Below, piece after piece: positions 21,106-48,416 of a DNA stretch of 64,000 nt (its first letter is position 1; every line of letters starts with the position of its first letter). Under the pieces are notes generated by a model. The model had not been told where the DNA came from. It saw nothing but the letters and a program-made list of their open reading frames with translations, and ran no database searches. The stretch covers positions 13,252-77,251 of the forward strand of contig JAGMCI010000017.1 in NCBI GenBank assembly GCA_023129325.1. The letters are read 5' to 3'. This stretch comes from a candidate division WOR-3 bacterium (lineage in GTDB: Bacteria; Hydrothermota; UBA3073; JACQXS01; JAGMCI01). The translations under genes and the position numbers were made by a program.

Positions 21106-21116
21106 TGGTTAATATG

Positions 21117-21270: not shown

Positions 21271-21283
21271 AACCTTTTAATTT

Positions 21284-21378
21284 CCCACTTCTAACTTCCC
21301 CACTTCTAACTTCCCACTTCTCCACTTCTAACTTCCCACTTCCCACTTCTCCACTTCCTACTTCTCCACTTCCCACTT
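21284..21378. repeat. ~13-unit degenerate heptamer array (CYNACTT, ACTTC family) directly after the tonB stop
   Basis: CCCACTT CTAACTT CCCCACTT CTAACTT CCCACTT CTCCACTT .... Confidence 0.9.
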
Positions 21379-21978: not shown

Positions 21979-21987
21979 AAATATTAT

Positions 21988-22018
21988 GTAGGGGCAGACC
22001 TTGCGTCTGCCTAAACTC
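21988..22018. repeat. GTAGGGGC-family element, identical copy directly upstream of tonB
   Basis: The same 31 nt as 21117..21147. Confidence 0.85.
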
Positions 22019-22967: not shown

Positions 22968-23028
22968 TCGTCAATCGGTTACGGTGACGAGACCCGTAAC
23001 CGAACTACGAAACGGGCTTCCTCACCTA
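22968..23028. repeat. same modular family, between exbD and exbB
   Basis: TCGTCAATCGGTTACGGTGACGAGACCCGTAACCGAACTACGAAACGGGCTTCCTCACCTA. Confidence 0.85.
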
Positions 23029-23043
23029 TCCGCCTAAGGCGGA
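23029..23043. repeat. 15-nt palindrome TCCGCCTNAGGCGGA
   Basis: TCCGCCTAAGGCGGA, 1 nt before the exbB stop. Confidence 0.9.
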
Positions 23044-23696: not shown

Positions 23697-24530
23697 TTAA
23701 AAAATGTCAAGTCTTTTTTTAAAAAAATTCCACTCTTTTGTTGAATACTTCTTTAGTAATTTATCTGTAAGCTCTCTTTCCTCATTTGTAAAAGTTCCTT
23801 CAATAATTTTTATCCCGCTTGCTTTAATTCCTTGCTTTAAAGCTATTGTGATTTCCTTGAGCTTGAAGTCACGACCTAAAATTTCTGAAAGACAGGATGT
23901 AGAGCGTCCGTCAACTGATGGATAGGATACGAAATTTGGGGGTGAGATTGGTATAGTTCCTTGTTGAAGGATTGTTCCATTAGCTCTCCTTTGGGCACTT
24001 CCGAGTATCTTTTTTCCATTGACTTGAAGTTCATATCTCATAAAAGAGCTAAAACAAACTGGAATCCGTTCATAGTGATTGGTAGTTCTCACTATCTGTG
24101 TCTGCCTGCTCCGCTCCGACAAGCGAAGCGGGACGGAGCCGGCGAGGCAGGCATCAATATTTAGAGTCTTTAGCCCAAGGGCAAAAATAAGGCTTACCTT
24201 TTTATAACTCTCAAACACAGAGCCTCCGAAAGTTGGATTTGTTTCATTAGTTACGAGTGAGTAAGTGAGGTCGCCATTGTGTACCACTGCTCTGCCTCCA
24301 GTAATTCTGCGTATAATAGGAAACCCATACTTCTTAAGATTCTTTATGTCCCGAATAGATTGCGAGTACCCTATCGTGATAGCAGGTGGCGAAAAAGTAT
24401 AAAATCTTAAAGTAGAATCGTATCCGGCAGTACACAAATTGTTAGATTGTGCTTTCCTGAATAATGCTTCATCTAATGCCATATTATAGAATCCATCTCT
24501 TGCCCAAGTATTTATTAGTCTAAGAATCAT
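23697..24530 (-). CDS. lipoate-protein ligase / octanoyltransferase family protein (BPL/LPL catalytic domain)
   Basis: RRITGGRAVVHNGDLTYSLV and GKKILGSAQRRANGTILQQGTI match my memory of LplA/LipM-type domains. The gene carries an in-frame GC-rich repeat (LAGSVPLRLSERSRQTQ). Confidence 0.65.
   Translation of the reverse strand: MILRLINTWARDGFYNMALDEALFRKAQSNNLCTAGYDSTLRFYTFSPPAITIGYSQSIRDIKNLKKYGFPIIRRITGGRAVVHNGDLTYSLVTNETNPTFGGSVFESYKKVSLIFALGLKTLNIDACLAGSVPLRLSERSRQTQIVRTTNHYERIPVCFSSFMRYELQVNGKKILGSAQRRANGTILQQGTIPISPPNFVSYPSVDGRSTSCLSEILGRDFKLKEITIALKQGIKASGIKIIEGTFTNEERELTDKLLKKYSTKEWNFFKKRLDIF
24102..24152. repeat. CCGCTCCGACAAGCGAAGCGGGACGG-family copy, in frame in the lipoate ligase-like gene
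   Basis: Core at 24111-24138 with CTGCC/GGCAG flanks. Read antisense it gives LAGSVPLRLSERSRQ. Confidence 0.85.
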
Positions 24531-26846: not shown

Positions 26847-26862
26847 TTCTTTACGAAGGCTA

Positions 26863-26887
26863 TCCCGCACATAAATTATGTGCGGGA
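26863..26887. repeat. solitary TCCCGCAC...GTGCGGGA hairpin
   Basis: TCCCGCACATAAATTATGTGCGGGA, identical to hairpin 1 of leader copy B. It lies between two genes of the membrane operon. Confidence 0.85.
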
Positions 26888-30745: not shown

Positions 30746-30806
30746 TAATACGCCCCTGCAAGGGCAGAATTTGTGTTTCCTGCCTCGCCTGCGAGTCAAG
30801 GCGGGT

Positions 30807-31862
30807 GTGTTTTTTGTAATACTTAGTATTTCTACACTCCCCGTGCGAGCAAGATGTGAATTTAAGTCTCAGTCGGAGTTGATTGATAGTCCAACAGCGC
30901 ATGTTTCTGATGATTGGTTTGCTCTTGGAATGACCTTTTCTATTACAACTAAAGATGACCCTCACTGGGCTGTTGGTAATGCCTATTTGAAAGTCCAGAT
31001 TCCTGGGAAATTATTCCTTGGATTGTCAATTTTTAATCTTAGAGAAGCCTTGGTAGCATTTGATGCTGGATGGAAGGTAAATAAGGAAACTCAAAATATG
31101 CCAGCTATTATGTTGGGATGTTTATACCTTTCTCCTTATCGCTGGATTTCTCCAGTTGGTCATGATAGTACTGTCGGCTGGGCAGATGACCAAACTTATG
31201 ATACGAAAAGGAATTCAGAACAATTTTCTGCTTTTGTTGTTGCTACAAAAGATTTTGGACCTTATGGACTTTATAATGTTGGAATAGGAAGGGGTTCGCT
31301 GGTTGGCTATGGACCAAGGTCTCATCTCTTTAATACTGATATGTTTATGAGAGACCATCATAACGACGCTGTAGGAATTATTTGGGGTGGCGAGGTAAAT
31401 ATTAGAAAAAATATATTTGGAGTGCTTGACTTTGATGGAAGGGATTTTAATGTTGGAATTAAGATTAAAGGTAAATGGTATCAAATAGGAATCGCCGCAG
31501 CTAAACTTGAACACCGATTAGGAGGTTCTCCAATACTTTATCCTCGTTTTGCAGCAGGGTTTATAATAAATTCACATATATTAAAAAAATTGCCTCCCAA
31601 AATTCCAAAAATTGGAGCTGTTGCCGGAGTAGTACGGGATAAAAATACCCTGCAACCGTTAGTTGCTAAACTCGTGTTTACCGAAACTACCCTTCTTCCA
31701 GTAGCCACTGACAGTAACGGAAAATATACTGTTTCTATTATGCCTGGAACTTACAGGGTGAGGGCTGTTGTTTCAGGATATTATTGGCTTGAGAAAAAAA
31801 TTTATGTCGCTCCTCAAATGACAACAATATGTAACTTTGAATTAACGCCAAAGCCAAAATGA
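30807..31862 (+). CDS. putative outer-membrane protein with C-terminal carboxypeptidase-regulatory-like domain
   Basis: Track ORF 30681..31862. The first ~40 codons are repeat DNA, so I propose the in-frame GTG at 30807 (FFVILSISTLPVRA signal-like). C-terminus GVVRDKNTLQPLVAKLVF...GKYTVSIMPGTYRVRAVVSGY. The start is uncertain. Confidence 0.45.
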   Translation: MFFVILSISTLPVRARCEFKSQSELIDSPTAHVSDDWFALGMTFSITTKDDPHWAVGNAYLKVQIPGKLFLGLSIFNLREALVAFDAGWKVNKETQNMPAIMLGCLYLSPYRWISPVGHDSTVGWADDQTYDTKRNSEQFSAFVVATKDFGPYGLYNVGIGRGSLVGYGPRSHLFNTDMFMRDHHNDAVGIIWGGEVNIRKNIFGVLDFDGRDFNVGIKIKGKWYQIGIAAAKLEHRLGGSPILYPRFAAGFIINSHILKKLPPKIPKIGAVAGVVRDKNTLQPLVAKLVFTETTLLPVATDSNGKYTVSIMPGTYRVRAVVSGYYWLEKKIYVAPQMTTICNFELTPKPK

Positions 31863-31911
31863 AAAATCAAAAATTAAAATGTAAAAATCAAAATCACAAA
31901 TTAAAAATTGA
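31863..31911. repeat. A-rich heptamer array (AAAATCA AAAATTA AAATGTA ...)
   Basis: AAAATTAAAATG[C/T]AAAAATCAAAAT recurs at 37868-37895. A related run lies at 44064-44097. Confidence 0.8.
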
Positions 31912-31926
31912 AGTAAAAGGTTATAG

Positions 31927-31951
31927 GTAGGGGCAACCCTTGCGGTTGCCC
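31927..31951. repeat. GTAGGGGC-family element (variant)
   Basis: GTAGGGGCAACCCTTGCGGTTGCCC. Confidence 0.8.
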
Positions 31952-31957
31952 AAAATA

Positions 31958-32027
31958 AGTAGTTCGGTTACGGCTTTCGTCACCCAAAGCCGATTGACGA
32001 AACGGGTCTCGTCACCGTAACCATTTA
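31958..32027. repeat. same modular family, inverted and module-shuffled, upstream of leuS
   Basis: AGTAGTTCGGTTACGGCTTTCGTCACCC...CCGATTGACGAAACGGGTCTCGTCACCGTAACC. Confidence 0.8.
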
Positions 32028-32053: not shown

Positions 32054-34732
32054 ATGACTTATAATTTTAAAGATATTGAGGCAAGACAACAAAAGTATTG
32101 GGACCATATTGGGCTCCCTGCTCCTCCTAAAGTTCCACACAAAAAATATTATATCTTAGAGATGTATCCTTATCCTTCAGGTGACCTTCATATGGGGCAT
32201 CTTAAAAATTATGTGATAGGAGATACATTAACAAGATATAAACTAATGTGTGGATATGATATACTTCATCCTATAGGCTGGGATGCCTTTGGTCTACCTG
32301 CAGAAGAGTGTGCGATTGAGCAAGGCGTGGACCCGGAAAAATGGACTCTCCATAATATTCAAGTTTCTCGCTCAACATTCCGCCTTATGGGTATGTTATA
32401 TGATTGGGATAGAGAGATTACTACTTGCCTTCCAGATTATTATAAATGGACACAATGGTTATTTCTAAAATTATATGAACATGGCTTGGTATATCGTAAA
32501 AAAGCGTTCCAAAATTGGTGCCCTCACTGTCAGACAGTGCTTGCAAATGAACAAGTTGAGGCTGGAAGATGCTGGAGATGCGAAACCCCAGTGAGGAGAA
32601 AAGAACTAAAACAATGGTTCTTTAAAATTACCCAGTATGCTGAAAGATTGTTGACAGATATAAATAAACTCAACGGCTGGCCTGAACGAGTTAAGACACT
32701 GCAAAAAAATTGGATTGGTAAATCTGAAGGCTTGGAAATAGATTTCTCTTTACCTGCCCCGCTCCGACAAGCGAAGCGGGACGGAGATGGCAAGAAGATA
32801 CCAATATTTACTACAAGACCTGATACAATTTATGGAGTAACATTTATAGCAATTGCTCCAGAAAACGAACTTGCAAAGAGCCTTGGTAGAAACTCAAATT
32901 CAAAAAAAGAAGTCTTAAAATACATTGAAAATTCACTAAAACGAACAGAGATTGAAAGAACTTCATCAACCCGAGTTAAAGATGGAGTGAATACAGGCAA
33001 ATATGTGATTAATCCATTATCAGGTAAAAAAGCCGAAATATGGATTGCTGATTATGTCCTACCCTCCTATGGAACTGGCGTTGTAATGGGTGTCCCTGCT
33101 CACGACCAGAGAGATTTTGAATTTGCAAAGAAATACAAGATACCAATTGAAGTTGTTATTCAACCTAAAGGAGTAGGGGCGCATAGCGGCTCGACTGAGG
33201 CTTCCGTTGAGTCAGCCGAAACGCTCGCGACTCGACTGAGGCTTCCGTTGAGTCAGCCGAAACGCTCGTCGAAGCCCGAAGTCAATACGCCCCTACAAAA
33301 TATAAAACAGGCTTATGCCGAACCAGGAGTGATGATAAATTCGGGTCAGTTTAACGGTCTGGATTCAGTCAAAGGAGTAGAAAAAATAATTAAATTTGTG
33401 ACCCAAAACGGAATTGGAAGACGAAAAGTAAATTATAGGTTAAGAGATTGGTTAATATCACGCCAAAGATATTGGGGAGCACCTATTCCAATGATTCATT
33501 GTAAAAAGTGTGGAGTTGTTCCTGTTCCCTTTCATAACCTTCCAGTATACCTTCCAAAACAGGGAATCGATTTCACTCCAAAGGGAAAGTCTCCTCTTTC
33601 TTCAGTCCCTGATTTTATCAACACTAAGTGCCCAAAGTGCGGAAACCCTGCAACCCGAGACCCCGATACTATGGATACCTTTGTGGACTCTGCTTGGTAT
33701 GAGATTAGATACTTAGACCCCAAAAATGAACAAGCTCTTGTCTCAAAAAAGGAAGCCGAAAAATGGCTCCCAGTTGATCAATATATTGGAGGAGTGGAAT
33801 ATGCAACTACCCATCTCCTTTATTTTCGGTTTATCACAAAGTTTCTCTATGATATTGGAGTCCTCCCAGTAGATGAGCCAGTTGAAAATCTCTTTAATCA
33901 GGGGTTGATAAAAGATGAAACCGGGCAAAAGATGTCGAAATCAAAAGGCAATGCTGTCCCAGTAGGCCCATTTCTTAAAGAATGGGGGGCAGATATAGCA
34001 AGACTTACCATTTTATTCCTGGGACCTCCTTCTAAAGATGGAATATGGTCAGTAAAGGGCATACAAGGAGTAAGTAGATTTCTAAATAGAGTATATAAGC
34101 TTGTAAATGAAAATGCTTCTGTAGGGGCGTATGGCGACTCGACTGAGGCTTCCGTTGAGTCAGCCGAAACGCTCGCGACTCGACTGAGGCTTCCGTTGAG
34201 TCAGCCGAAACGCTCGTCGAAGTCCGAAGTCAATATGCCCCTACAAGAGGAGGAAAATTTTAAAAATACACCACTTTATAGGAAGCTTAATCTTACAATA
34301 TCAAAAGTGGAAGAGGACCTCAACTCTTTTGGATATAATACTGCTATAGCATCGCTTATGGAATTTACAAATGAACTTTATAAAACTCAAGAAAGAGGTT
34401 CCATTTTTGGGTACTCTTTAGGAGTGCTAATAAAACTACTCGCCCCATTTGCTCCCCATCTGTCTGAAGAGCTATGGCATGAGCTCGCCCATACGGGTTC
34501 AGTATTTAAATCCTGCTGGCCTGGTTGGAAAGAGGTAGAGGCAAAAAAAGTCACATTAGTGATTGAAATTAATGGAAAGCCAAGAGCTACAGTTGAGATT
34601 CCTTATGATTTAGGAGAGGAAGAAGTGAAAAAAGTTTGCTTGCATAATACTCGTATAGAAGGAAGAATTAAAGGAAAAAATATTAAAAAAATTATATTTG
34701 TTCAAAACAAGCTTATTAATTTTGTAATGTAA
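32054..34732 (+). CDS. leuS: leucine--tRNA ligase
   Basis: HIGH motif PYPSGDLHMGHLKNY, KMSKS motif QKMSKSKGN, and TTRPDTIYGVTF at the editing-domain entry. The ORF is intact despite three in-frame repeat insertions. Confidence 0.95.
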   Translation: MTYNFKDIEARQQKYWDHIGLPAPPKVPHKKYYILEMYPYPSGDLHMGHLKNYVIGDTLTRYKLMCGYDILHPIGWDAFGLPAEECAIEQGVDPEKWTLHNIQVSRSTFRLMGMLYDWDREITTCLPDYYKWTQWLFLKLYEHGLVYRKKAFQNWCPHCQTVLANEQVEAGRCWRCETPVRRKELKQWFFKITQYAERLLTDINKLNGWPERVKTLQKNWIGKSEGLEIDFSLPAPLRQAKRDGDGKKIPIFTTRPDTIYGVTFIAIAPENELAKSLGRNSNSKKEVLKYIENSLKRTEIERTSSTRVKDGVNTGKYVINPLSGKKAEIWIADYVLPSYGTGVVMGVPAHDQRDFEFAKKYKIPIEVVIQPKGVGAHSGSTEASVESAETLATRLRLPLSQPKRSSKPEVNTPLQNIKQAYAEPGVMINSGQFNGLDSVKGVEKIIKFVTQNGIGRRKVNYRLRDWLISRQRYWGAPIPMIHCKKCGVVPVPFHNLPVYLPKQGIDFTPKGKSPLSSVPDFINTKCPKCGNPATRDPDTMDTFVDSAWYEIRYLDPKNEQALVSKKEAEKWLPVDQYIGGVEYATTHLLYFRFITKFLYDIGVLPVDEPVENLFNQGLIKDETGQKMSKSKGNAVPVGPFLKEWGADIARLTILFLGPPSKDGIWSVKGIQGVSRFLNRVYKLVNENASVGAYGDSTEASVESAETLATRLRLPLSQPKRSSKSEVNMPLQEEENFKNTPLYRKLNLTISKVEEDLNSFGYNTAIASLMEFTNELYKTQERGSIFGYSLGVLIKLLAPFAPHLSEELWHELAHTGSVFKSCWPGWKEVEAKKVTLVIEINGKPRATVEIPYDLGEEEVKKVCLHNTRIEGRIKGKNIKKIIFVQNKLINFVM
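32751..32794. repeat. same family, in frame in leuS
   Basis: TACCTGCCCCGCTCCGACAAGCGAAGCGGGACGGAG encodes LPAPLRQAKRDGDGK. Confidence 0.85.
33173..33296 (+). repeat. 124-nt GTAGGGGCG...CGCCCCTAC element in frame in leuS (copy 1)
   Basis: Inverted termini GTAGGGGCGCAT / AATACGCCCCTAC. Internal 41-nt unit (CTCGACTGAGGCTTCCGTTGAGTCAGCCGAAACGCTCG plus 3 nt) present twice. Confidence 0.9.
34121..34244 (+). repeat. 124-nt GTAGGGGCG...GCCCCTAC element in frame in leuS (copy 2)
   Basis: By my alignment it differs from copy 1 at 5 of 124 positions. Same orientation and same reading frame. Confidence 0.9.
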
Positions 34733-34771: not shown

Positions 34772-35851
34772 ATGGAGTTTGTGGTAAATAAGATTGAAGA
34801 TTTAGATAAAAATTTACCCTCCAATGTGAAAAGAGTTAGAATAAACCTTCCTAATCTTGACTCAGCTGATATTGTTAATTTTGTTTCTAAGTACTTATCT
34901 TGTCTGTCTGCCCGACGTCCTGCAGGCGGGCAGGCGGGCAGGCGGGCAGGCGGGCGAATTAAAGCAAATATATCTGAACAGTCCCGACTTCAGTCGGGAT
35001 TAAGAGAGGACAGGACAATTCAGGAAGTGTGGTTAAAAAGTGATAAGTTTCCTATACTTTTAAAAAATGGGTATTTAATATTCTTCTCCAAAGGCGGGTC
35101 CCTGTCCGACAGATGGCTCGCCTCGCTGAAGCTTTGGCGAAGCGGGCAGGCGGGCGCCTCTGGCGGAAAAAACCACTCCAATGAGGTTAAGACTGGTGGG
35201 AAAAGAGGATTAGATATTTTTATAAGTAGTTTGATGCTTGGCATTTCTTTTCCTATTTTGCTTGTGAGTTCTATTCTTATAAAACTTACTTCTAAGGGGC
35301 CAGTCTTGTTCCGTCAATCCCGGATTGGCGTTAATGGAAAGTTATTTAATTTTTATAAATTTAGGACGATGCATTGTTCTAATCCATTAACCGATAGAGA
35401 TATACATCGCAATTATATAAAAAAATCTATACTTGGTAGCAATTCAGGACAATCTGTCTCTCAAACTCTTGATAAAACCAGAGCGGCAAACAAGAGAGTT
35501 TACAAATTGACCAATGACCCCAGAATAACCCCCGTTGGGAGATGGCTGAGAAAACTATCAATAGATGAACTTCCACAATTGATAAATGTCTTAAAAGGTG
35601 ATATGAGTCTCATAGGACCTCGGCCTCCAATACCTTACGAAGTTAAATTATACAGTGATTGGCACTATGTTAGGCTAATTGCCCGTCCTGGCATAACCGG
35701 GCTCTGGCAAGTTATGGGGAGAAGTCTTATTCCCTTTAATCAGATGGTATTACTTGACTTTTACTATGCAGTAAATCAATCATTTTGGTTAGACTTGAGA
35801 ATATTTTTACGCACTATCCCAATGGTCTTGTCATTGAAAGGAGCGTATTAA
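34772..35851 (+). CDS. bacterial sugar transferase (polyprenyl-phosphate sugar-1-phosphate transferase family) with repeat-rich N-terminal extension
   Basis: KRGLDIFISSLMLGISFPILLVSSILIKLTSKGPVLFRQSRIG...FYKFRTM...DPRITPVGRWLRKLSIDELPQLINVLKGDMSLIGPRPP. Confidence 0.8.
   Translation: MEFVVNKIEDLDKNLPSNVKRVRINLPNLDSADIVNFVSKYLSCLSARRPAGGQAGRRAGGRIKANISEQSRLQSGLREDRTIQEVWLKSDKFPILLKNGYLIFFSKGGSLSDRWLASLKLWRSGQAGASGGKNHSNEVKTGGKRGLDIFISSLMLGISFPILLVSSILIKLTSKGPVLFRQSRIGVNGKLFNFYKFRTMHCSNPLTDRDIHRNYIKKSILGSNSGQSVSQTLDKTRAANKRVYKLTNDPRITPVGRWLRKLSIDELPQLINVLKGDMSLIGPRPPIPYEVKLYSDWHYVRLIARPGITGLWQVMGRSLIPFNQMVLLDFYYAVNQSFWLDLRIFLRTIPMVLSLKGAY
34908..34954. repeat. CTGCCCGACGTCCTGCAGGCGGG element followed by (CAGGCGGG)x4 perfect octamer tandem, in frame in the sugar transferase
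   Basis: Four perfect octamer units at 34923-34954. It encodes SARRPAGGQAGRRAGGR. Confidence 0.85.
34982..34999. repeat. 7-bp-stem hairpin in frame in the sugar transferase
   Basis: TCCCGAC-TTCA-GTCGGGA. Confidence 0.6.
35117..35156. repeat. GCCCGCTTCGCC / CAGCGAGGCGAG-family element in frame in the sugar transferase
   Basis: CTCGCCTCGCTGAAGCTTTGGCGAAGCGGGCAGGCGGGCG encodes ASLKLWRSGQAGA. Confidence 0.8.
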
Positions 35852-36523
35852 ATGGCAGTGAGGATTGGAAAATCAGTAAAAATATATCCGGGAGTGAAAT
35901 TAGGGAACGGTTGTGTAATTTATGATTTTGTTGTTCTTGGTTTTCCACCACGAAATAAAATGGTAGGGGCGTATAGCGATACGTCCCTACAGATTGGGGA
36001 AAATGCTATTATACGACCATTTACCACTATATATGCGGGTAACCGTATAGGTGACAACTTCCAGAGCGGACAAGGAACAAGTATTAGAGAGGATAATATA
36101 ATTGGCAATAATGTGAGCGTAGGTAGCAATACTACACTTGAATTCGGAAACCGTATTGGTTCAGGGACAAGAATTCACTCTTTGTGCTTCCTTGAGCTTG
36201 TTAATGTAGGGGAAAATGTTTTTATTGGTCCAGGTACAGTTTTTCTTGATGACCCTCATCCTATGAATTGTCCCAGATATCGTGAATGTCTGGGAGGTGC
36301 AAAAGTTAAGAAACTTGTTAAGATTGGTGGAGGATGTATTATCCTTCCAGGAATTACTATTGGAGAAGCTGCTCTTATAGGAGCTGGAACTTGTGTGACT
36401 AAAGATGTTCCAAAAGGAGTAGTTGTTGTTGGACATCCAGGCAAGTTTGTTAAGAAGATTGAAGAACTTAAGTGCTATCCAGGGTTTTTTAAACGTCCTT
36501 ACCTTTGGAAGCCATATATATAA
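35852..36523 (+). CDS. left-handed beta-helix (hexapeptide repeat) sugar N-acetyltransferase
   Basis: Imperfect hexapeptide repeats run through most of the protein (IGDNFQSGQGTSIREDNIIGNNVSVGSNTTLE...). The ATG directly follows the upstream stop. Confidence 0.75.
   Translation: MAVRIGKSVKIYPGVKLGNGCVIYDFVVLGFPPRNKMVGAYSDTSLQIGENAIIRPFTTIYAGNRIGDNFQSGQGTSIREDNIIGNNVSVGSNTTLEFGNRIGSGTRIHSLCFLELVNVGENVFIGPGTVFLDDPHPMNCPRYRECLGGAKVKKLVKIGGGCIILPGITIGEAALIGAGTCVTKDVPKGVVVVGHPGKFVKKIEELKCYPGFFKRPYLWKPYI
35963..35990. repeat. minimal GTAGGGGC element (termini only) in frame in the acetyltransferase gene
   Basis: GTAGGGGCGTAT-AGCG-ATACGTCCCTAC encodes VGAYSDTSLQ. Confidence 0.8.
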
Positions 36524-36556: not shown

Positions 36557-36622
36557 TACCTGCCCCGCTCCGACAAGCGAAGCGGGACGGAGACGGCAGG
36601 CAGGTATTTTTTTCTTTTTTTT
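36557..36622 (+). terminator. Rho-independent terminator built from a CCGCTCCGACAAGCGAAGCGGGACGG-family repeat copy
   Basis: Outer stem TACCTGCC / GGCAGGTA encloses the repeat core and is followed by TTTTTTTCTTTTTTTT. It lies 34 nt after the acetyltransferase stop. Confidence 0.7.
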
Positions 36623-36631: not shown

Positions 36632-36659
36632 TTGACAACAGATTTAATTATGCTATCAT
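36632..36659 (+). promoter_or_regulatory. sigma70-like promoter TTGACA-16-TATCAT; ATG 8 nt downstream (leaderless)
   Basis: TTGACA at 36632-36637, TATCAT at 36654-36659, ATG at 36667. It directly follows the terminator-like repeat. Confidence 0.55.
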
Positions 36660-36666
36660 TGATAGC

Positions 36667-37698
36667 ATGATAACAACAGCTATTATTGGATGTGGGTATT
36701 GGGGATTAAATATAGTAAGGACTTTATATGAGAACCCTAATTGCATATTGAAATATTGTTGTGATATAGATGAAAAAAAACTTGCTAATATTCTGAGTCA
36801 ATATCCAGAAGTAAGAATAACCAGATATAGCGAAGAAGTGTTTAATGATAAAGGTGTTCAAGCTGTATTTATAGCAACTCCGCTTAGCTGGCATTATCCA
36901 TTGGCGAAAGAAGGGCTACTTGCTAAAAAAGCTATCTTTGTTGAGAAACCTTTTGTTATGAATGTTGAACAAGGGAAAAAACTTGTCAAATTATCAGAGC
37001 AAAACAAAGTTCCTCTTGCAGTGGGCCACATTTTTGAATATGCTCCTCCCGTTATAAAAATTAAAGAACTCTTGGATAAAGATGAAATAGGGGATATCTA
37101 TTATATTTCTTCTACCAGAGTAAATCTTGGAATTCATCGAAAAGATGGGTCTGTTGTCTGGGACCTTGCTTCTCACGACCTCTCCATGATTTTTTATTGG
37201 CTTGAAGAAGAGCCAATATCAATTCAAGTTACAGGGAAAGAGTCCATAATAAAAGGAAAGCCAGATATAGCTTTTCTTACACTAAGATTCCCATCAGATA
37301 TACTTGTCAATATACAAGTTTCATGGCTTGCACCAAGTAAATTAAGAAATACTGTAATTGTGGGTTCAAAAAAGATGATTATCTATGATGATACAAATCA
37401 ACTTGAAAAAGTAAAAATTTTTGATAAGGGAATTTCTAAGCTTGAACATTCAAGTTTTGGAGAATTTCAGTTATCTTATCGCACAGGAGATATTACAGTT
37501 CCAGTTTTATCCAATGCAGAACCTCTTAGACAAGAAATTAATCATTTCTTGAAATGTGTTGAATTTAATCAGACTCCCAAAACTGATGGGAATTCAGGTA
37601 TAAGAGTTGTTAAATATCTTGAGCTTGCCGAACAATCTTTAAAAAGTAACGGAAAAACAATTACTGTCAACTCAAAAAACAAATGCCTACCTGCCTGA
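36667..37698 (+). CDS. Gfo/Idh/MocA family NAD(P)-dependent oxidoreductase (nucleotide-sugar dehydrogenase-like)
   Basis: N-terminal Rossmann AIIGCGYWGLNIVR and EKP motif FVEKPF. It sits in a sugar-modification context. Confidence 0.8.
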   Translation: MITTAIIGCGYWGLNIVRTLYENPNCILKYCCDIDEKKLANILSQYPEVRITRYSEEVFNDKGVQAVFIATPLSWHYPLAKEGLLAKKAIFVEKPFVMNVEQGKKLVKLSEQNKVPLAVGHIFEYAPPVIKIKELLDKDEIGDIYYISSTRVNLGIHRKDGSVVWDLASHDLSMIFYWLEEEPISIQVTGKESIIKGKPDIAFLTLRFPSDILVNIQVSWLAPSKLRNTVIVGSKKMIIYDDTNQLEKVKIFDKGISKLEHSSFGEFQLSYRTGDITVPVLSNAEPLRQEINHFLKCVEFNQTPKTDGNSGIRVVKYLELAEQSLKSNGKTITVNSKNKCLPA

Positions 37699-37722: not shown

Positions 37723-37763
37723 CCTAAATGCTTAAAATTCAGGCATTTAGGTATTTTTCTTTT
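37723..37763 (+). terminator. Rho-independent terminator after the oxidoreductase gene
   Basis: Stem CCTAAATGC (37723-31) / GCATTTAGG (37743-51) followed by TATTTTTCTTTT. Confidence 0.7.
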
Positions 37764-37855: not shown

Positions 37856-37863
37856 TTTTTAAT

Positions 37864-37996
37864 ATCAAAAATTAAAATGCAAAAATCAAAATTATTGTAG
37901 GCACGATTTCAAATCGCACAGGCAATTTATGATTAAGATTAAAAAAGTTTTGCTTTTTAATATGTGATTTTGATATTTGATTTTTGATATTTAATA
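37864..37996. repeat. inverted ATCAAAA / TTTTGAT heptamer arrays flanking the TGTAGGCAC hairpin
   Basis: Left array at 37864-37891 and right array at 37948-37996. Confidence 0.75.
37896..37924. repeat. TGTAGGCAC-family hairpin (short)
   Basis: TGTAGGCACGATTTCAAATCGCACAGGCA, flanked by inverted ATCAAAA / TTTTGAT arrays. Confidence 0.8.
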
Positions 37997-38006
37997 TTCT
38001 TTAATT

Positions 38007-40208: not shown

Positions 40209-40809
40209 TTCCTGCCCGACGGACGATAGGCGGGAGAGACTCAGCGAAAGCCTGGCTCCTCTTTATAGCCTGTTTTAAGATAGTAGCCGAACCCTTTAGA
40301 GTTCGTGATTTATGTCGTTTAGCCTCATCTTTAATCAGCCGTATAAAGTTTAAAGCAATAAGTGTAGTTTCGCCTAATTTAAGTTTGCGATGTGTGAGCC
40401 AATCCAGTGTATGGGCTAACTCGAGTGAGCCAGTGGATGCAATAAAGATAAGCGAAAAGGCAGTGGCTAATAAAGCTCGGGTTCCAAGAATCAGACTTTT
40501 ATATAGTCCCTCATAACTTATCCCGCCAAGCAAAGCGGGACGGATTCCCGGGACAACTATTTCCCCCTTGATAGCCCAGAGTGGAAAACCGTAAATTATC
40601 AGCAGGAATGGTAAAAACCATACAAATCGGTGTATAAAAATCTTCTTATTTTTTAGCAAAATGAATTCTGTTAAAAAGATGACAAAAAGAATAGCAAAGA
40701 CCTGCAAGTTTTTAGCAATTCCGCAGCTAACAAGGAGTAATATAGTAAGAATAAGCTTTAATTTTGCCCCGTCAGATAGTAAACATCTAACGGGGCGGGG
40801 CATAAGCAT
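40195..40809 (-). CDS. EcfT/CbiQ-like energy-coupling-factor transporter transmembrane protein (short, possibly degenerate)
   Basis: Multi-TM protein with LIALNFIRLIKDEAKRHKSR, resembling the ECF-T coupling-helix region. ecfT directly upstream of truA is a gene order I recall from Firmicutes. No ecfA is nearby. The C-terminus is encoded by a repeat. Confidence 0.4.
   Translation of the reverse strand: MLMPRPVRCLLSDGAKLKLILTILLLVSCGIAKNLQVFAILFVIFLTEFILLKNKKIFIHRFVWFLPFLLIIYGFPLWAIKGEIVVPGIRPALLGGISYEGLYKSLILGTRALLATAFSLIFIASTGSLELAHTLDWLTHRKLKLGETTLIALNFIRLIKDEAKRHKSRTLKGSATILKQAIKRSQAFAESLPPIVRRAGNAKH
40211..40235. repeat. related CCTGCCCGAC...GGCGGGA element at the ecfT-like C-terminus / truA start overlap
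   Basis: CCTGCCCGACGGACGATAGGCGGGA encodes PPIVRRAGN. Confidence 0.6.
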
Positions 40810-42485: not shown

Positions 42486-43343
42486 TTAAACTGAATTTTC
42501 TCTGTTTACCTCAATGAACTTTATTATTTCCTTAATTATCCAATCTGGGGTTGAAGTTCCGGCTGTTACACCGATACTTGATTTTGTTTTGAACCACTGG
42601 GGTTTAAGTTCAGCCTTTGTTTCTATATGATAAGTTTCACAACCTTGGTCTCGACTTAGTTCAGCGAGTCGCGTTGTATTGGCTGAATTATGACCTCCAA
42701 CGACAATCATTAAATCTACCTTTTTAGCAAGTTCAATTGTATGTTGTTGTCGTAAACTTACGACCTCACAAATTGTATTATAGATATGTAATTCTTTAGT
42801 GGTTTGTAGGAGATGAGATACCACTTCTGCGAATGTAGATGAGGCTAAAGTTGTTTGTGCGATAACGCCTATTTTATCAAACTTTCCACTTTCCACTTTC
42901 CACTTCCCACTTCCTGTTGGGTCTATGACTTGAGCCCGATTCTGAGTATGTCCGACTATGCTTTGAACTTCAGGGTGGTCAGGCTTACCGACCACAAAAG
43001 CTTGGTATTCGGCATCACAGAGAGCCTTAGCATAATTTTGTGCCTTTTTTACAAATGGACAGGTTGCGTCTATTATTTTAAACCCGAGTTTCAGGGCTTC
43101 ATCAATTACTGAATCTGGTGCACCATGGGACCTTATAATTAGTTTACCTATTTTAACCTTAGATAGTGATTTAATAGGACATAGTCCTAAAGTCTCAAGT
43201 TGCTTAACTACTTGTGGGTTGTGGATTACAGGGCCGTAAGAATAGACAGGCAATTTAGATTCTGTAAGAGTTTTATTGGCTATATCTATTGACCTCTTTA
43301 CTCCGAAACAAAAACCAGAATTTGGTATCTCAAATACTTTCAT
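42486..43343 (-). CDS. ispH: 4-hydroxy-3-methylbut-2-enyl diphosphate reductase
   Basis: GFCFGVKRSI, ATCPFVKK, AQTT and GGHNSANTTRLAE are IspH/LytB hallmarks including the Fe-S cysteines. Confidence 0.9.
   Translation of the reverse strand: MKVFEIPNSGFCFGVKRSIDIANKTLTESKLPVYSYGPVIHNPQVVKQLETLGLCPIKSLSKVKIGKLIIRSHGAPDSVIDEALKLGFKIIDATCPFVKKAQNYAKALCDAEYQAFVVGKPDHPEVQSIVGHTQNRAQVIDPTGSGKWKVESGKFDKIGVIAQTTLASSTFAEVVSHLLQTTKELHIYNTICEVVSLRQQHTIELAKKVDLMIVVGGHNSANTTRLAELSRDQGCETYHIETKAELKPQWFKTKSSIGVTAGTSTPDWIIKEIIKFIEVNRENSV
42882..42914. repeat. ACTTC-family heptamers in frame in ispH
   Basis: CCACTTT CCACTTT CCACTTC CCACTTC encodes GSGKWKVESGK. Confidence 0.85.
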
Positions 43344-44068
43344 TAGTTACCCACCTTCCTGCTGTCTCCGTCCCGCTTCGCTTGTCGGAGCAGGGGGCAA
43401 GGCAGGTTTGTTACTGACAGGTTTTTGATTCTACGCTCTACTTCTTTAGAAATTATGGCACGAGCTTCTCTGGGTAACTTCGCTTGCCTGCCTGCAGACA
43501 GGTCTCTGAGAAGAGAGTCATAAATAACAGGTTTCCCGAATCGAACACATACTTTTTCTTTCCGAATAAATTGTTTAATGAGTGGAGTATTAGTCCCTTT
43601 TACAAGAGTTGGTACCACAGGCACCTCGCATCTTAAAGCCAACCAGGCTACACCGGGATGAAATTCTAAAAAATGTCCTGATAGACTGCGTGTGCCCTCA
43701 GGGAAAAACATAATAGCTAAACCATTTTTTAATAATTTCTCTGTGTGCTTGAGCGCCGTTTTGTTCAGTCCTTTTGTGTTAACTTCATAAGCATTAAAAG
43801 CCTTGATTAACCAAGTATAAAATTTATTGATCACAAATAGTTCTTGTTTAGTAAAAAGATAACACTCCCTGAACCACACAGCTGCCCCAACCAATGGGGG
43901 GTCAAAGTTTGATAAATGGTTAGGTGCGATAATGACACCTCCTTTTTTAGGAATGTTTTCCCATCCCTCAATTTTAAAGCCAAATAATAATTTCCAGGTC
44001 CAATAAATTATCCTTATTGCTATCCTGTATCTTAACTTCATCACACCAAATTTAGAATTAAATATCAA
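43343..44068 (-). CDS. plsC: 1-acyl-sn-glycerol-3-phosphate acyltransferase
   Basis: HX4D motif APNHLSNFDPP and FPEGTRS. The start could instead be the internal MKLRYRI. The C-terminal ~25 aa are repeat-encoded. Confidence 0.8.
   Translation of the reverse strand: MIFNSKFGVMKLRYRIAIRIIYWTWKLLFGFKIEGWENIPKKGGVIIAPNHLSNFDPPLVGAAVWFRECYLFTKQELFVINKFYTWLIKAFNAYEVNTKGLNKTALKHTEKLLKNGLAIMFFPEGTRSLSGHFLEFHPGVAWLALRCEVPVVPTLVKGTNTPLIKQFIRKEKVCVRFGKPVIYDSLLRDLSAGRQAKLPREARAIISKEVERRIKNLSVTNLPCPLLRQAKRDGDSRKVGN
43358..43406. repeat. same family, forming the C-terminus of plsC
   Basis: The reverse complement of the core lies at 43366-43391. It encodes PCPLLRQAKRDGDSRKVGN*. Confidence 0.85.
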
Positions 44069-44224
44069 AAATCAAAATTACATATTAAAATGCAAAAATT
44101 ACAACAACAGACTGAAGACCGAAGACATAAGACTGACGACAAAAAAGTCTACGGTCTCTGGTCTTAAGTCTATAGCCTTTCTTTTTAATTTTTGATTTGT
44201 CATTTTGATATTTGATTTTTAATG
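44064..44224. repeat. nested inverted heptamer arrays between cmk and plsC
   Basis: The outer pair is ATCAAAA (44064-97) / TTTTGAT (44183-224; it encodes the cmk C-terminus). The inner pair is AGACNNA x4 (44109-40) / NNNGTCT (44147-71), separated by AAAAAA. Confidence 0.8.
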
Positions 44225-44880
44225 GTTGATATTTTTTTTATCACTTTTTCCACTTGTTCTTCAATTGATAAGTTTGTTGTATTAATAATTACTGCTCCCA
44301 AAGGAACCTTTAAAGGTGAGAGTTGTCTTAATTTGTCTTGAATATCTCTTGATTTTAAATCACGAGATATTTCTTCAAACTTTGCAGAGACTCTTTTTTC
44401 CCTTAATTCTTTTAACCTTCTTGCTGTTCTTATGTGATGGTCAGCATCCATATAAATTTTAACTTCAGCTTCTGGGAAAACCACTGTTCCAATATCCCTA
44501 CCTTCACAGACAATCCCGCACTTATGCATAAGTGCGGGACCAGATGCCATACGTCTCTGTAACTTAACCATATTTTCGCGTACTCCTTTATATTTGGAAC
44601 AAAGAGAAGCCAATTTACCTATCTCCTCTGTTCTAATGGCTTGGGTCACATCTTCATCATTTAAGAATATTTTTTCATCCCTAAAACTAATATCCAGTTC
44701 AGAAGAAAGGGCTGTAACTTTTTTCCTATTAGTTGGCTCTATTTTATTTTGTTTAACTGAAAGAGCAACGGCCCGATAAGTTGCGCCAGTATCAATATAT
44801 TTATAGCCTAATCTTTTAGCTACTAATTTAGCAGTAGTTGACTTTCCTGAGCCAGCTGTTCCATCAATTGTAACAATCAT
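44200..44880 (-). CDS. cmk: cytidylate kinase
   Basis: IVTIDGTAGSGKSTTAK P-loop and GRDIGTVVFPEA. ATGA overlap with the thiL stop. Confidence 0.9.
   Translation of the reverse strand: MIVTIDGTAGSGKSTTAKLVAKRLGYKYIDTGATYRAVALSVKQNKIEPTNRKKVTALSSELDISFRDEKIFLNDEDVTQAIRTEEIGKLASLCSKYKGVRENMVKLQRRMASGPALMHKCGIVCEGRDIGTVVFPEAEVKIYMDADHHIRTARRLKELREKRVSAKFEEISRDLKSRDIQDKLRQLSPLKVPLGAVIINTTNLSIEEQVEKVIKKISTIKNQISK
44524..44549. repeat. TCCCGCAC hairpin inside cmk, in frame
   Basis: TCCCGCACTTATGCATAAGTGCGGGA encodes GPALMHKCGI just before the GRDIGT motif. Confidence 0.8.
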
Positions 44881-45836
44881 ATTTTAAAATGGTCAAATCC
44901 CTTCACAGGAATCTCGTTTCCCTCCTCATCTATAATTTTTACTTCCCACTTCCCACTTCCCACTCCGTGGTGAAGGTCGTGGCGAACCACTTCCCACTTT
45001 TCTATTATCTCTCCTACTTCTGTAAATTCAACCCTTTTTTTAGCCTGCGTAGTATAAATTTTGGGAATTGTAAAAAGTAATTCAAATTCCTCACCTCCAT
45101 TTAAGGCACAAGAGATTGGCGAAAGAGAAAATTTACTTGTTATCTTTCTTGTTTCATTATTTATAGGGAGATTATTTCTCCATATTTTTGCCCCTACTTT
45201 TGATTCATCAAGAATATGAGAAAGGTCAATTGTGAAGCCGTCGGAAATATCTATCATTGATGTAACATAATTACTGAGCTCTTTTCCTTCCTTAATCCTG
45301 GGTAATGGATTAAGATGCTGTCTTATCAAAGGACTTTTAATTCCATTTTGAAGTGCTAAAAGTCCAGCAAAAGAGTTTCCAAGCTTGCCTGTAACACAAA
45401 TTAAATCCCCAATTTTAGCACCCGACCTTTTTATTATTTTCTTTACTTCACCAATAACACAGATAGTTATTGAAATAATTTTTGATTTTGTAAGTTCGCC
45501 ACCAATTATTTCCATATTAAACAATTTTGCTATTTCTCTTACACCACGATAAAAATCTTTTATAAACTTAAGGTCGCCAGTTGGGAGGCCAACTGAAATA
45601 AGAGCATATCTTGGTATCCCACCGCAAGCAGCAATGTCAGACATTGAAGCCGAAAGGCTCTTGTAGCCAACATCATAAGGTGTGAAATAAGCAGTATCAA
45701 AATGAACTTTCTCTATAAAAGAATCAATTGTCACAAGTGGTATAAGTCCTGGAGAAATATTAAAAGCTTCAGCATCGTCACCAATTCTTGGGAATACTTT
45801 TCTTATTTCTTTTATGAGTTCAAATTCACTTGTCAT
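44877..45836 (-). CDS. thiL: thiamine-monophosphate kinase
   Basis: AIR-synthase-related fold motifs: GDDAEAF..., DSFIEKVHF, MSDIAACGG and DISDGF. Confidence 0.8.
   Translation of the reverse strand: MTSEFELIKEIRKVFPRIGDDAEAFNISPGLIPLVTIDSFIEKVHFDTAYFTPYDVGYKSLSASMSDIAACGGIPRYALISVGLPTGDLKFIKDFYRGVREIAKLFNMEIIGGELTKSKIISITICVIGEVKKIIKRSGAKIGDLICVTGKLGNSFAGLLALQNGIKSPLIRQHLNPLPRIKEGKELSNYVTSMIDISDGFTIDLSHILDESKVGAKIWRNNLPINNETRKITSKFSLSPISCALNGGEEFELLFTIPKIYTTQAKKRVEFTEVGEIIEKWEVVRHDLHHGVGSGKWEVKIIDEEGNEIPVKGFDHFKI
44941..44959. repeat. (ACTTCCC)x2.7 in frame in thiL
   Basis: It encodes SGKWEVK. It abuts the 31-nt CCACTCCGTGG element. Confidence 0.8.
44960..44990. repeat. CCACTCCGTGGTGAAGGTCGTGGYGAACCAC element in frame in thiL
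   Basis: Read antisense it gives VVRHDLHHGVG. It is adjacent to an ACTTCCC heptamer run. Confidence 0.85.
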
Positions 45837-46779: not shown

Positions 46780-47079
46780 TTATTTTGTCTTAGGCGGATT
46801 ACTTTTTAATTTAACATAAGTTAATTTAAGATTGCTAATCATACCTTCAAGTAATTCTTGTTCTTCTTTATTCAGGTTGCCTTTTGTCTTTTTCTTTAAC
46901 ATATCAAGAGTATCAATGCTATACTTAGCTAACTCAAGATTAGGCTCTACTTTGTCAGTGAGTGGATTTTTGACAAGCCCAAGATGTTGCGATGCTATGG
47001 TTGTGAGAAAAAGAATAAGTGATAAAAAAGATGCTTCTGGTGGTTCACCACGACCTTCACCACGGAGTGGTTTTTCCAT
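46780..47079 (-). CDS. DUF1844-like small protein
   Basis: FLSLILFLTTIASQHLGLVKNP...NLELAKYSIDTLDMLKKKTKGNLNKEEQELLE matches my memory of DUF1844. The N-terminal EKPLRGEGRGEPP is repeat-encoded. Confidence 0.55.
   Translation of the reverse strand: MEKPLRGEGRGEPPEASFLSLILFLTTIASQHLGLVKNPLTDKVEPNLELAKYSIDTLDMLKKKTKGNLNKEEQELLEGMISNLKLTYVKLKSNPPKTK
47040..47072. repeat. same 31-33-nt element, opposite orientation, in frame at the DUF1844 N-terminus
   Basis: It encodes KPLRGEGRGEP. Confidence 0.85.
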
Positions 47080-48416
47080 TATACCTCCTGCCGTCCGTTC
47101 TTATCAACTCGACTTGTTGATTTAGAACAGCGAGCATCCCGCACCGTATGGTGCGGGAATTCATTCTTAGTTGTATCTATTAGTAAAGATTTTACTCCAC
47201 AAGGTTTGCCATTATTGATGTAAATACGCGGGACCCTTGGACATATATTGGTAAGTATTTCATAACTAATAGTTCCTGCAAGTTTAGCAACTTCATCGCA
47301 ACTTATACCATTGCCAATAAGAGTAACTTTGTCACCTATTTTTACATCAGGAATATGAGTTACATCAACCATAGTAAGGTCCATACACACAGCCCCAACA
47401 ACTTTAGCCCGTTTACTCTTTATAACAACAATTCCCTTATTTGAAAGGCTCCGTGGATAGCCATCTCCATAACCAACAGATAAGGTGGCAATTTTGCTTG
47501 ATTCATTAGTAATGTAGGTTCTGCCATAAGAAATTGGAGTCCCCGGAGGAACTAACTTTAACTGGCAAACCCGGGTATAAAGATTTAAAATTGGTTTTAC
47601 CTCAATTGAGCTTGTGTGCACTGATGGATATAAGCCATAGAGCAAAAGTCCTGGTCTTATCATATTAAAATAAGAATCGGGAAATCCAAGTATAGCCGCA
47701 GAGTTCGCAGTATGAACCAAAGGCACTTGAATTCCCTTATTTTGTAATTCCTGAATTAAAGCATTAAATTTTTCAAGTTGATTAAGTGTAAAATTTTTAT
47801 CTCCCCCGCCTGCAGGATGTCGGGCAGGTCTTTCTGTTTCAGCAAAATGAGTAAACAGACCGTCTAACTTAAGATTCTTTAATTCAAGCACCTTAAGGAT
47901 AAAATCTATGGCTTCAGTGTAAGGGGTCCCAGTCCTGCCCATTCCAGTATCAACCTCAATATTGATTTTGATAATTTTACCCGCTTCTTTGGCACGCTTA
48001 TTAAGTTCAATAGCAAAAGGATAATATGTAACTGTTGGTATAAAGTCATTAGATACCTGCCCGCTCGCCTCGCTCTCGCTCCGGCGAAGCGGGCTGCTCT
48101 GCTTTGGCAGGCGGGTAAGTTTTGGCACATCGCTTACTAAAATGGGTGAAAGAATTACTATTGGTAAACCTATTTCGGCTAACTCACAAGCCTCATCAAT
48201 TGAGGCTACTCCCAACATATCAATTCCTTCCTCTTTTAATGTTTTTGATATTTCTCGTGCCCCATGTCCATAAGCGGCAGCTTTAACAGCTGCTAAAATC
48301 CTCACCTTACTATTTGATTTGTTAATAGTTTGATAGCTTGAAAGCCTTTCTTTTAGAGCTTTTACATTAGACTTTAACTTATCTAAGTCCACTACTGCCC
48401 AAGTTCTGCCATCCAT
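47079..48416 (-). CDS. alr: alanine racemase
   Basis: PLP-lysine motif AAVKAAAYGHG, HFA and YGDGYPR. Two in-frame repeat insertions, plus a C-terminal extension read through the downstream leader element. Confidence 0.85.
   Translation of the reverse strand: MDGRTWAVVDLDKLKSNVKALKERLSSYQTINKSNSKVRILAAVKAAAYGHGAREISKTLKEEGIDMLGVASIDEACELAEIGLPIVILSPILVSDVPKLTRLPKQSSPLRRSESEASGQVSNDFIPTVTYYPFAIELNKRAKEAGKIIKINIEVDTGMGRTGTPYTEAIDFILKVLELKNLKLDGLFTHFAETERPARHPAGGGDKNFTLNQLEKFNALIQELQNKGIQVPLVHTANSAAILGFPDSYFNMIRPGLLLYGLYPSVHTSSIEVKPILNLYTRVCQLKLVPPGTPISYGRTYITNESSKIATLSVGYGDGYPRSLSNKGIVVIKSKRAKVVGAVCMDLTMVDVTHIPDVKIGDKVTLIGNGISCDEVAKLAGTISYEILTNICPRVPRIYINNGKPCGVKSLLIDTTKNEFPHHTVRDARCSKSTSRVDKNGRQEV
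47080..47158 (-). repeat. two-hairpin leader element plus SD, copy C, upstream of the DUF1844 gene (also read as the alr C-terminus)
   Basis: It shares ACCTCCTGCCGTCCGTTCTT and GCGAGCATCCCGCAC with copy B. The loops differ. Confidence 0.85.
47805..47827. repeat. reverse-complement copy of CTGCCCGACRTCCTGCAGGCGGG in frame in alr
   Basis: One mismatch to 34908-34930. It encodes RPARHPAGGG. Confidence 0.8.
48056..48115. repeat. same family, in frame in alr
   Basis: CCTGCCCGCTCGCCTCGCTCTCGCTCCGGCGAAGCGGGCTG...GGCAGGCGGG encodes LPKQSSPLRRSESEASGQV. Confidence 0.8.

Follow-up and report, generated by a model that had tools for sequence, protein, structure and literature searches.

The intergenic repeat copy from which this analysis starts lies in a 64,000-nt stretch of DNA from a candidate division WOR-3 bacterium (the window, whose numbering is used throughout), between genes for a hexapeptide acetyltransferase (35852-36523, + strand) and a GFO/IDH/MocA oxidoreductase (36667-37698, + strand, ATG at 36667). 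It reads TACCTGCC-CCG-CTCCG-ACAAGCGAAGCGGGA-CGGAG-AC-GGCAGGCAGGTA at 36557..36606 on the + strand, with TACCTGCC...GGCAGGTA as outer arms, and is directly followed by a T7-C-T8 run (36607..36622, +) and then by a sigma-70-like promoter (TTGACA, 16 nt, TG-n-TATCAT; 36632..36659, +), which matches at 11 of 12 positions and is the best match in the 30-46 kb region. The initial annotation had expected such a promoter behind the T-run, and also placed the element directly after the acetyltransferase stop; the latter was inaccurate, since the stop codon is at 36521-36523 and the element begins 33 nt later. Three further copies lie in genes for leucyl-tRNA synthetase (LeuRS; 32054-34732, +), an LplA/LipB-like protein (23697-24530, -) and a PlsC-type acyltransferase (43343-44068, -). 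Pfam upheld the gene identities that had been proposed. An identical LeuRS is encoded on contig DAOWLA010000007.1 (142,798 bp) of the MAG GCA_030643605.1, annotated as candidate division WOR-3, in which the window spans positions 13529-77528.

The window contains the 26-nt core CCGCTCCGACAAGCGAAGCGGGACGG four times, as had been noticed before, versus 0 expected: three exact matches at 24111(+), 32759(+) and 36565(+) and one with a single mismatch at 43368(-), compared with no match in any of 100 dinucleotide-preserving shuffles of the window. Similarity among the window copies extends beyond this core over ~50 nt. The element can be described as a ~51-nt GC-rich compound hairpin, ACCTGCCTGCC...GCGAAGC...GGCAGGCAGGT, delimited by 10-11-nt terminal inverted repeats (ACCTGCCTGCC / GGCAGGCAGGT), with an inner stem CCG-CTCCG / CGGAG-n-CGG and an apex holding GCGAAGC, a sequence that forms an extraordinarily stable DNA mini-hairpin (PMC13037366). 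The consensus, ACCTGCCTGCC-CCG-CTCCG-ACAAGCGAAGCGGGA-CGGAG-nC-GGCAGRCAGGT, was derived from a nine-copy alignment comprising the four window copies and five JGI metagenome members, L004, L010 (identical to L014), L013, L016 and L018. These true family members reside on independent metagenome contigs, both in intergenic positions and in an ORF; the remaining matches of the same scan fell into a conserved gene of 59%-GC Acidobacteria and are attributable to chance. Four of the nine distinct copies are located in ORFs and five are intergenic, the window contributing one intergenic copy and three in intact ORFs (leuS, lplA-like, plsC). The intergenic, lplA and plsC copies fold as RNA with -29 to -33 kcal/mol (z about -2.5 to -4.2), in contrast to the leuS copy, which folds weakly (-17.9 kcal/mol, z = -1.7) and whose 3' arm has decayed to GGCAAGAAGATA. 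As DNA, the two strands of the consensus gave z = -5.4 and -6.0. A profile search of 78,048 bp of the source contig, window included, retrieved only the four copies plus one degenerate relic, CCCGCCAAGCAAAGCGGGACGGA, in cbiQ (40524..40546, +; nhmmer E = 0.007), which corresponds to an 8-aa insertion relative to a syntenic relative and differs in its reading phase. Rfam held no family matching the element, neither at the gathering threshold nor at E <= 1, and a scan of viral contigs found no match; a 20-mer core scan of a genome contig collection that did not include the source MAG yielded only two chance matches, in Acidobacteria and Lloydbacteria.

The segment 36557-36622 has the sequence make-up of a Rho-independent terminator, i.e. 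a GC-rich stem-loop with a directly adjoining U-tract, downstream of a gene and co-oriented with it. Folding of the intergenic copy gave -31.6 kcal/mol (z = -4.0), and none of 200 shuffles was as stable. The hairpin was omitted by a consensus terminator scan, whose loop limit is 3-8 nt; ordinary hairpin-plus-T terminators exist in the organism, for example at 37723-37751. A strong hairpin placed against the T-run at 36607-36622 should terminate like any intrinsic terminator, and termination at 36622 appears somewhat more probable than read-through. The initial annotation had gone further and assigned the terminator role to the repeat family. Its description of the site holds with regard to the hairpin and the T-run; its extension to the family does not, as the T-run is missing from all eight other aligned copies, including the four intergenic metagenome copies. 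Because it has no counterpart in these copies, the T-run belongs to the flank and not to the element. An own-strand T-run thus accompanies only one of the five intergenic copies, and the L018 copy, which lies between convergent genes, has a weaker T-rich stretch, TTTGATTTTTG, on the opposite strand (reverse complement of the left flank). Since the spacers of this genome consist of AT-rich, low-complexity sequence, chance is likely to place a hairpin next to a T-run. We interpret the terminator look of the intergenic copy as a positional by-product of its landing site rather than as a property carried by the element.

The leuS copy (32751..32800, +), identified by core match and orthologue comparison, is read in the sense direction as LPAPLRQAKRDGDGKKI. 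The segment PAPLRQAK(R) is lacking in T. thermophilus LeuRS and in 11 of the 11 nearest homologues (56-63% identity), and the protein has 892 aa compared with 797-832 aa in these homologues. The net gain at this copy is 9-11 codons relative to all homologues, or 11 aa relative to the syntenic relative, with repeat similarity spanning ~16 codons, so that the boundaries of this insertion are only approximate; the native DG(S)DGK loop of LeuRS is similar to DGDGR, which the element encodes in its 3' arm. In an AlphaFold2 model of modest quality (mean pLDDT 67), the insert (residues 235-246) lies between strands 223-232 and 248-253 as a coil of low confidence. LeuRS otherwise aligns with its homologues over the full length and has kept its HIGH (HMGH) and KMSKS motifs, and an open frame of 892 codons in 37%-GC DNA implies that selection must maintain the ORF. 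The lplA-like copy comprises 51 nt (24102..24152, + strand, in a gene on the - strand), is read in the antisense direction as LAGSVPLRLSERSRQ(T), and encodes the peptide DACLAGSVPLRLSERSRQ; the protein carries ~16 extra residues, LAGSVPLRLSERSRQT, relative to nine homologues. The LplA and PlsC homologues were obtained with a joined LplA+PlsC query against a representative protein library. Ribosomal protein S8 (rpsH) on metagenome contig L016 harbors the same element in the same frame, DLPAPLRQAKRDGAGKAS, as an insertion of exactly 17 aa (51 nt) relative to solved S8 structures. Translation bore out the sense reading LRQAKRDG in leuS and plsC and the antisense reading VPLRLSERSRQ in the lplA-like gene, and with it the earlier observation of one family that occurs between genes as well as, in either orientation, inside ORFs that remain intact. 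Judged from the comparison with orthologues, which lack them in the case of LeuRS, the LplA-like protein and PlsC alike, the in-ORF copies are lineage-specific insertions.

The sequence source is a metagenome-assembled genome, and one may ask whether the copies are assembly artefacts or the host genes pseudogenes. We consider this scarcely conceivable, as the same element is present on JGI metagenome contigs of other projects, including one inside rpsH, and all host ORFs are intact and align end-to-end with their homologues. The pseudogene alternative, which the initial annotation had named as well, was rejected on the same grounds and in view of the two preserved LeuRS signature motifs. DNA uptake sequences (USS/DUS) were likewise dismissed as an explanation. 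Such sequences are 9-12-nt motifs that occur about once per kb and arise in genes by point mutation, not by insertion; here, only four copies exist in 78 kb and the copies are insertions relative to orthologues.

The copy at the 3' end of plsC (43353..43407, -) is read in the sense direction as NLPCPLLRQAKRDGDSRKV, resulting in the C-terminal peptide NLPCPLLRQAKRDGDSRKVGN directly before the stop. Nine PlsC homologues terminate about where the element starts, so that the element-encoded part forms a C-terminal tail in this protein, and the element sits exactly between the conserved plsC end (...RIKNLSVTN) and the ispH ATG. The initial annotation had the element supply both the last ~19 codons and the stop of plsC. 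The element does provide these codons but not the stop codon: TAA is at 43345-43343, 7 nt past the end of the repeat, within a TAATG (43341..43345, -) in which the plsC stop overlaps the ispH start and which lies outside the repeat. To speak of an element recruited as a gene end was therefore an overstatement, and the event is best described, on the present comparison, as an insertion into the plsC/ispH gene junction that is read through to the first stop beyond it. In mechanistic terms, the copy would have landed in this junction, leaving plsC to read on to the next stop. At a distance of 8 nt from the ispH ATG, the 3' arm of the copy, AGGAAGGTG, looks like a Shine-Dalgarno site. The plsC of the syntenic relative L025 ends with ...RIEELYESATCT and overlaps ispH by 23 nt, and the ispH Shine-Dalgarno sequence, GAGGAG, sits within this plsC.

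The window contains 17 GC-rich islands (>= 70% GC over 30 nt) in sequence of 37% GC, most of them inside ORFs. They cluster into several palindromic insertion families, several of which share ACCTGCC / GGCAGG ends and one of which also shares the apex motif. ACCTGCC occurs 13 times versus 4.0 expected, and the apex motif GCGAAGCGG seven times versus 0.07 expected. One sister-family member with ACCTGCC / GGCAGG ends and the GCGAAGCGG apex is found at 48052..48115 (+), where it constitutes a 20-aa insertion in alanine racemase; relatives are located at 35092-35174 (Bac_transf) and 49541-49581 (endonuclease V). In the CCTGCC...GGCAGG group as a whole, 13 of 14 copies reside in ORFs when island coordinates are compared with the gene tables, which equals the proportion expected from a coding fraction of 0.91 and indicates that the group shows no ORF avoidance. 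That the studied family is one of several GC-rich palindromic families went beyond the initial annotation, as did the finding that leuS holds three insertions, namely the copy of the studied family and two of 42 aa each. The latter two are copies, 96% identical, of a 126-nt palindromic element, GTAGGGGCG...CGCCCCTAC (33173-33298 and 34121-34246), which folds with -60.5 kcal/mol (z = -4.8); of its six frames, only the one in use is open.

Two syntenic relatives with the same GC content offered empty sites for comparison: L024 (SLBB-wzz-CarboxypepD_reg-leuS-Bac_transf; GC 37.5%) and L025 (alr-DUF1844-panB-thiL-cmk-plsC-ispH-S1-cbiQ-truA; GC 36.1%). In the matching spans, both contain 0 GC-rich islands versus 2.7 per 10 kb here. 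The 15 orthologue pairs revealed 15 insertions with a GC content of 0.56-0.75 in eight genes (alr, DUF1844, thiL, plsC, cbiQ, CarboxypepD_reg, leuS, Bac_transf), and all of the ~15 GC-rich inserts examined preserve the frame and are devoid of stop codons. These inserts bear on the question of whether the in-ORF copies might stay untranslated, owing either to ribosomal bypassing as at the T4 gene 60 coding gap or in Magnusiomyces, or to removal from the mRNA. The mitochondrial byps of Magnusiomyces capitatus, short and GC-rich hairpins inserted into the genes of an AT-rich genome, superficially present the same picture, and they share with the gene 60 gap and the elements described here the nature of short nucleotide blocks inserted within protein genes. 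According to a review of the Magnusiomyces case, inserted blocks at 81 positions are bypassed during translation, and the inserts break the frame in 12 of 15 genes, ribosomes skipping them (PMC5009743). In the WOR-3 bacterium, by contrast, the frame is always kept, which makes plain translation the simple reading; frame preservation and absence of stops throughout ~15 inserts are expected only if these are translated, and no copy combines a take-off codon with a subsequent stop codon. We hence regard bypassing or mRNA removal as highly improbable.

The element is free of stop codons in all of its six frames. This property is unremarkable for a sequence of this composition (P = 0.16), and we rejected it as a sign of selection, given that 16% of same-composition shuffles are likewise open. 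The inserts in S8 and the lplA-like gene are both 51 nt long, so that the full-length unit is a multiple of three, and by virtue of this length and its openness a copy can occupy an ORF in either orientation without breaking the frame. By inspection, the six-frame peptides are rich in Gly, Ala, Arg and Pro. All four full-length in-ORF copies share one codon phase relative to the element, which would occur by chance with a probability of ~1/27: three have the sense reading LRQAKRDG, and the antisense reading SVPLRLSE is its register complement. Among the six consensus frames, cysteine is absent only from these two. The shared phase is no more than a hint, since the cbiQ relic uses another one. 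A joined six-frame query of element peptides against proteins gave 38 word-sharing candidates, none with E <= 10, and an X-padded element-peptide profile, which scored E ~2e-6 on LeuRS itself, returned no protein from the word index.

Some features could also be understood if the host had selected the element as a functional module and kept it for that function in every copy, be it as a terminator, as a hairpin for mRNA stabilization or RNase processing, or as a site that binds protein or DNA. As counted in alignments, the core differs by only 0-1 mismatches among the four window copies, while the arms differ by ~10%; of the five intergenic copies, three are situated at the 3' end of a gene or between convergent genes; the plsC copy provides ispH with its Shine-Dalgarno-like AGGAAGGTG, where the relative uses GAGGAG; and roles of this kind have been credited to REP, Correia and SPRITE elements (PMC10969869). 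A common function is difficult to reconcile, however, with an own-strand T-run at a single intergenic copy, with mutually unrelated host genes, with the use of both orientations (the apex motif GCGAAGCGG is sense in four and antisense in three cases), with the largely lost hairpin stability of the leuS copy, with relatives that manage without such elements, and with the lack of an Rfam match. Taken together, we consider selection for a host function in every copy very unlikely.

The reading we favor, with a probability of about 0.78, is that the family represents a small non-autonomous mobile element of the REP/MITE type in a candidate division WOR-3 bacterium that is tolerated in-frame in ORFs. 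An insertion into a gene would neither shift nor stop the frame but add a loop of 9-17 residues that the protein tolerates, and selection would eliminate a copy only if it damaged the protein. The annotated genes of the 78 kb include neither a transposase nor a RAYT, so that mobility is deduced solely from the distribution of the copies. The nine-copy alignment revealed no consistent target-site duplication; ATCAA is found on both sides of the L004 copy, in a spacer that itself is a periodic AAATCAA repeat. A single-strand transposase of the HUH/RAYT type would fit both the hairpin ends and the absence of target-site duplications. As to the flanks, the 9-mer CAATATTTA is present only three times in the window; two of these occurrences immediately follow the lplA and leuS copies on the 3' side, at an identical offset, and encode native conserved residues in both genes. 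Its presence in two 3' flanks hints at target choice or at microhomology-driven copying rather than simple transposition. On the other strand, TTGAT precedes two copies and TTGGT one; TTGAT is the target of ISDra2. The CAATATTTA 3' of two copies and the TTGAT/TTGGT 5' of three are hints that would fit an IS200/IS605-like single-strand transposase.

The same flanks can be read differently, in that the element may not transpose at all; template switching or gene conversion may instead spread it among sites that have short stretches of homology to its 3' arm and flank. This would account for CAATATTTA in native residues at the same 3' offset of the lplA and leuS copies, for the resemblance of the leuS DG(S)DGK loop to the DGDGR of the element together with a net gain of merely 9-11 codons, and for the fact that neither a target-site duplication (alignment) nor a transposase (78 kb) was seen. 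Yet, the other six copies are flanked by unrelated sequences, the insertion in S8 measures a clean 51 nt, and the same terminal inverted repeats recur in sister families whose interiors differ, a pattern that usually marks recognition by a transposase. On balance, spread by template switching or gene conversion seems unlikely to us.

One may further speculate that the hairpin group CCTGCC...GCGAAGC...GGCAGG is adapted to life inside coding sequence, considering its multiple-of-three length, its freedom from stop codons, the lack of ORF avoidance, the shared phase and the hints of sequence-directed targeting. We consider this possible but rather doubtful. Should it prove true, nature would offer, besides Rickettsia, a second example of selfish DNA remodelling a proteome, one that is independent and more extreme, with a LeuRS bearing three inserts and a ribosomal protein S8 bearing one.

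The closest known counterparts in terms of behavior are the RPEs of Rickettsia, for which ten families with 44 insertions are listed in R. conorii, nearly half of the elements being in ORFs (PMC10969869, citing Ogata et al. 2000, 2002). As summarized there, RPEs resemble the studied family in being dispersed palindromic repeats that occur between genes as well as in-frame in unrelated housekeeping genes; in both cases, several families coexist per genome, a peptide is added to proteins that stay intact, and close relatives lack the inserts. The family indeed consists of palindromic, dispersed hairpin repeats inserted in-frame into unrelated genes and absent from the orthologues. RPEs are larger (~100-150 nt versus ~51 nt here), the 126-nt leuS element with its single open frame being the closer match in size. 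Furthermore, the host belongs to WOR-3 and not to the Alphaproteobacteria, and the studied element differs from RPEs in being open in six frames, used in both orientations and GC-rich amid an AT-rich genome; a relationship at the sequence level is not expected, and the likeness refers to behavior, without a claim to RPE family membership. We classify the family as coding palindromic mobile repeats of the kind known from Rickettsia, here in a new phylum. A full-text literature search for WOR-3 combined with repeat or palindromic elements found no description of such elements. In-frame palindromic selfish DNA in essential genes has so far been treated as a Rickettsia curiosity; here, it is encountered in an unrelated uncultured phylum and at high density, with three inserts in LeuRS and GC-rich inserts in eight of 15 compared genes. 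Such elements may be a more general source of protein loops, C-terminal tails and gene-junction signals, and the landing site alone would decide whether an insertion ends up as the hairpin of a terminator, as a loop in a protein, or as the tail of a gene together with a ribosome-binding site. A practical corollary is an annotation hazard, as odd-length proteins and intragenic GC-rich islands in MAGs may be taken for errors.

REP/REPIN elements are extragenic, have GTAG heads and depend on a RAYT (PMC3116915, PMC3337134). Common ground with the family exists insofar as these are short GC-rich imperfect palindromes with many copies and no target-site duplication, which can act as terminators or mRNA stabilizers at gene ends. 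In contrast to REPs, three of the four window copies, four of all nine copies and 13 of 14 members of the wider group are in ORFs, the ends in the nine-copy alignment read ACCTGCC, with neither GTAG nor GGAG conserved, and a RAYT gene is missing among the annotated genes of the 78 kb. For Correia/CREE (Neisseria), SPRITE (S. pneumoniae) and ERIC elements, some copies are terminators or promoters and some are intragenic (PMC10969869). SPRITE carries its own terminator-like sequence, as opposed to the T-run at 36607-36622, which comes from the flank. The terminal inverted repeats and the strongly folding transcript are MITE-like, although the studied element is at the lower size limit of MITEs and revealed no target-site duplication, TA or otherwise. 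The window also contains a separate REP-like family with GTAG heads, at 21110, 21982 and 31921.

LeuRS contains three selfish inserts: one copy of the 51-nt GC-rich hairpin element, and a palindromic element of 126 nt (42 codons) that occurs twice in frame within leuS (window 33173-33298 and 34121-34246). The two 126-nt copies, each a palindrome of the form GTAGGGGCG...CGCCCCTAC, are 96% identical, lie in the same orientation and have only one of six reading frames open; all homologues lack the element. Further GC-rich hairpins, belonging to sister families that have CCTGCC/GGCAGG ends in common, were found at window positions 30778-30809, 34901-34965, 35092-35174, 40210-40240, 47799-47832, 48052-48115 and 49541-49581, as well as on the same contig beyond the window (68209-68270 and -4572..-4513). 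Their host genes are those for Bac_transf, alanine racemase, endonuclease V, cbiQ, a CarboxypepD_reg protein, a DAO-type oxidoreductase and mfd. The GCGAAGCGG apex is also present in one of these families (family 2), and the copy at 34901 contains a tandem expansion with a unit of the GGCGGGCA type.

In the LplA-like homologue P0124 from another lineage, a different insertion of ~28 aa with a high content of Ser, Thr, Pro, Ala and Gly occupies the same LplA loop (alignment columns 135-175), and this loop seems to be a recurrent site tolerant of insertions. At the plsC/ispH junction (window 43341-43360), the GAGGAG that serves as the ispH Shine-Dalgarno sequence inside plsC of the syntenic relative contig L025 (4590-4610) is replaced by AGGAAGGTG, which originates from the 3' arm of the 51-nt element and is located 8 nt upstream of the ispH ATG. 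A second, small insertion in PlsC adds 7 aa at residues about 181-195 (window 43456-43500), where the protein reads LLRDLSAGRQAK versus SGIKQGK in the relative. The DNA of this insertion, CTGTCTGCAGGCAGGCAAGCGAAG, is similar to fragments of the 51-nt element family. Another repeat, GTGGTTCACCACGACCTTCACCACGGAGTGGTT (window 44960-45019, 47040-47072 and 54120-54152), accounts for a 9-aa insertion at the DUF1844 N-terminus and is also found within the C-terminal part of thiL, with two of its copies representing a perfect inverted match over 33 nt.

Repeats of the form CAGAACGGCGAGCATCCCGCAC-(AT-rich loop)-GTGCGGGA are positioned at the starts or ends of genes, for example overlapping the beginning of the ORF for the TonB-dependent receptor (window 8709-8741, 20941-20995, 26858-26887, 47112-47157 and 53018-53061). 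A mostly intergenic, GTAG-headed family, TGTAGGGGCAGACCTTGCGTCTGCCTAAAC (window 21110-21146, 21982-22018 and 31921-31957), has the look of classical REP sequences, from which the genome may be predicted to also contain a RAYT-type system; within the same spacers, these repeats are adjoined by the intergenic family GGTGACGAAAGCCGTAACCGAACTACGAAACGGGCTTCCTCACC (window 21203-21270, 22983-23029 and, as the reverse complement, 31959-32019). Most intergenic regions are made up of AT-rich tandem motifs with a periodicity of 7 or 14 nt, such as AAATCAAAAATTAAAATG, TAATTGCTAATTGATAATTG and CTTCCCACTTCTAA (window 17763-17824, 21274-21375, 31850-31912, 37862-37998, 44048-44233 and others), and the spacer motif AAATCAAA also borders copies of the 51-nt element in the metagenome contigs L004 and L018. 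Finally, in the interval 36632-36667 of the window, a sequence strongly resembling a promoter (TTGACA, 16 nt, TG-n-TATCAT) ends 8 nt upstream of the ATG of the GFO/IDH/MocA gene, whose mRNA may be leaderless or nearly so.
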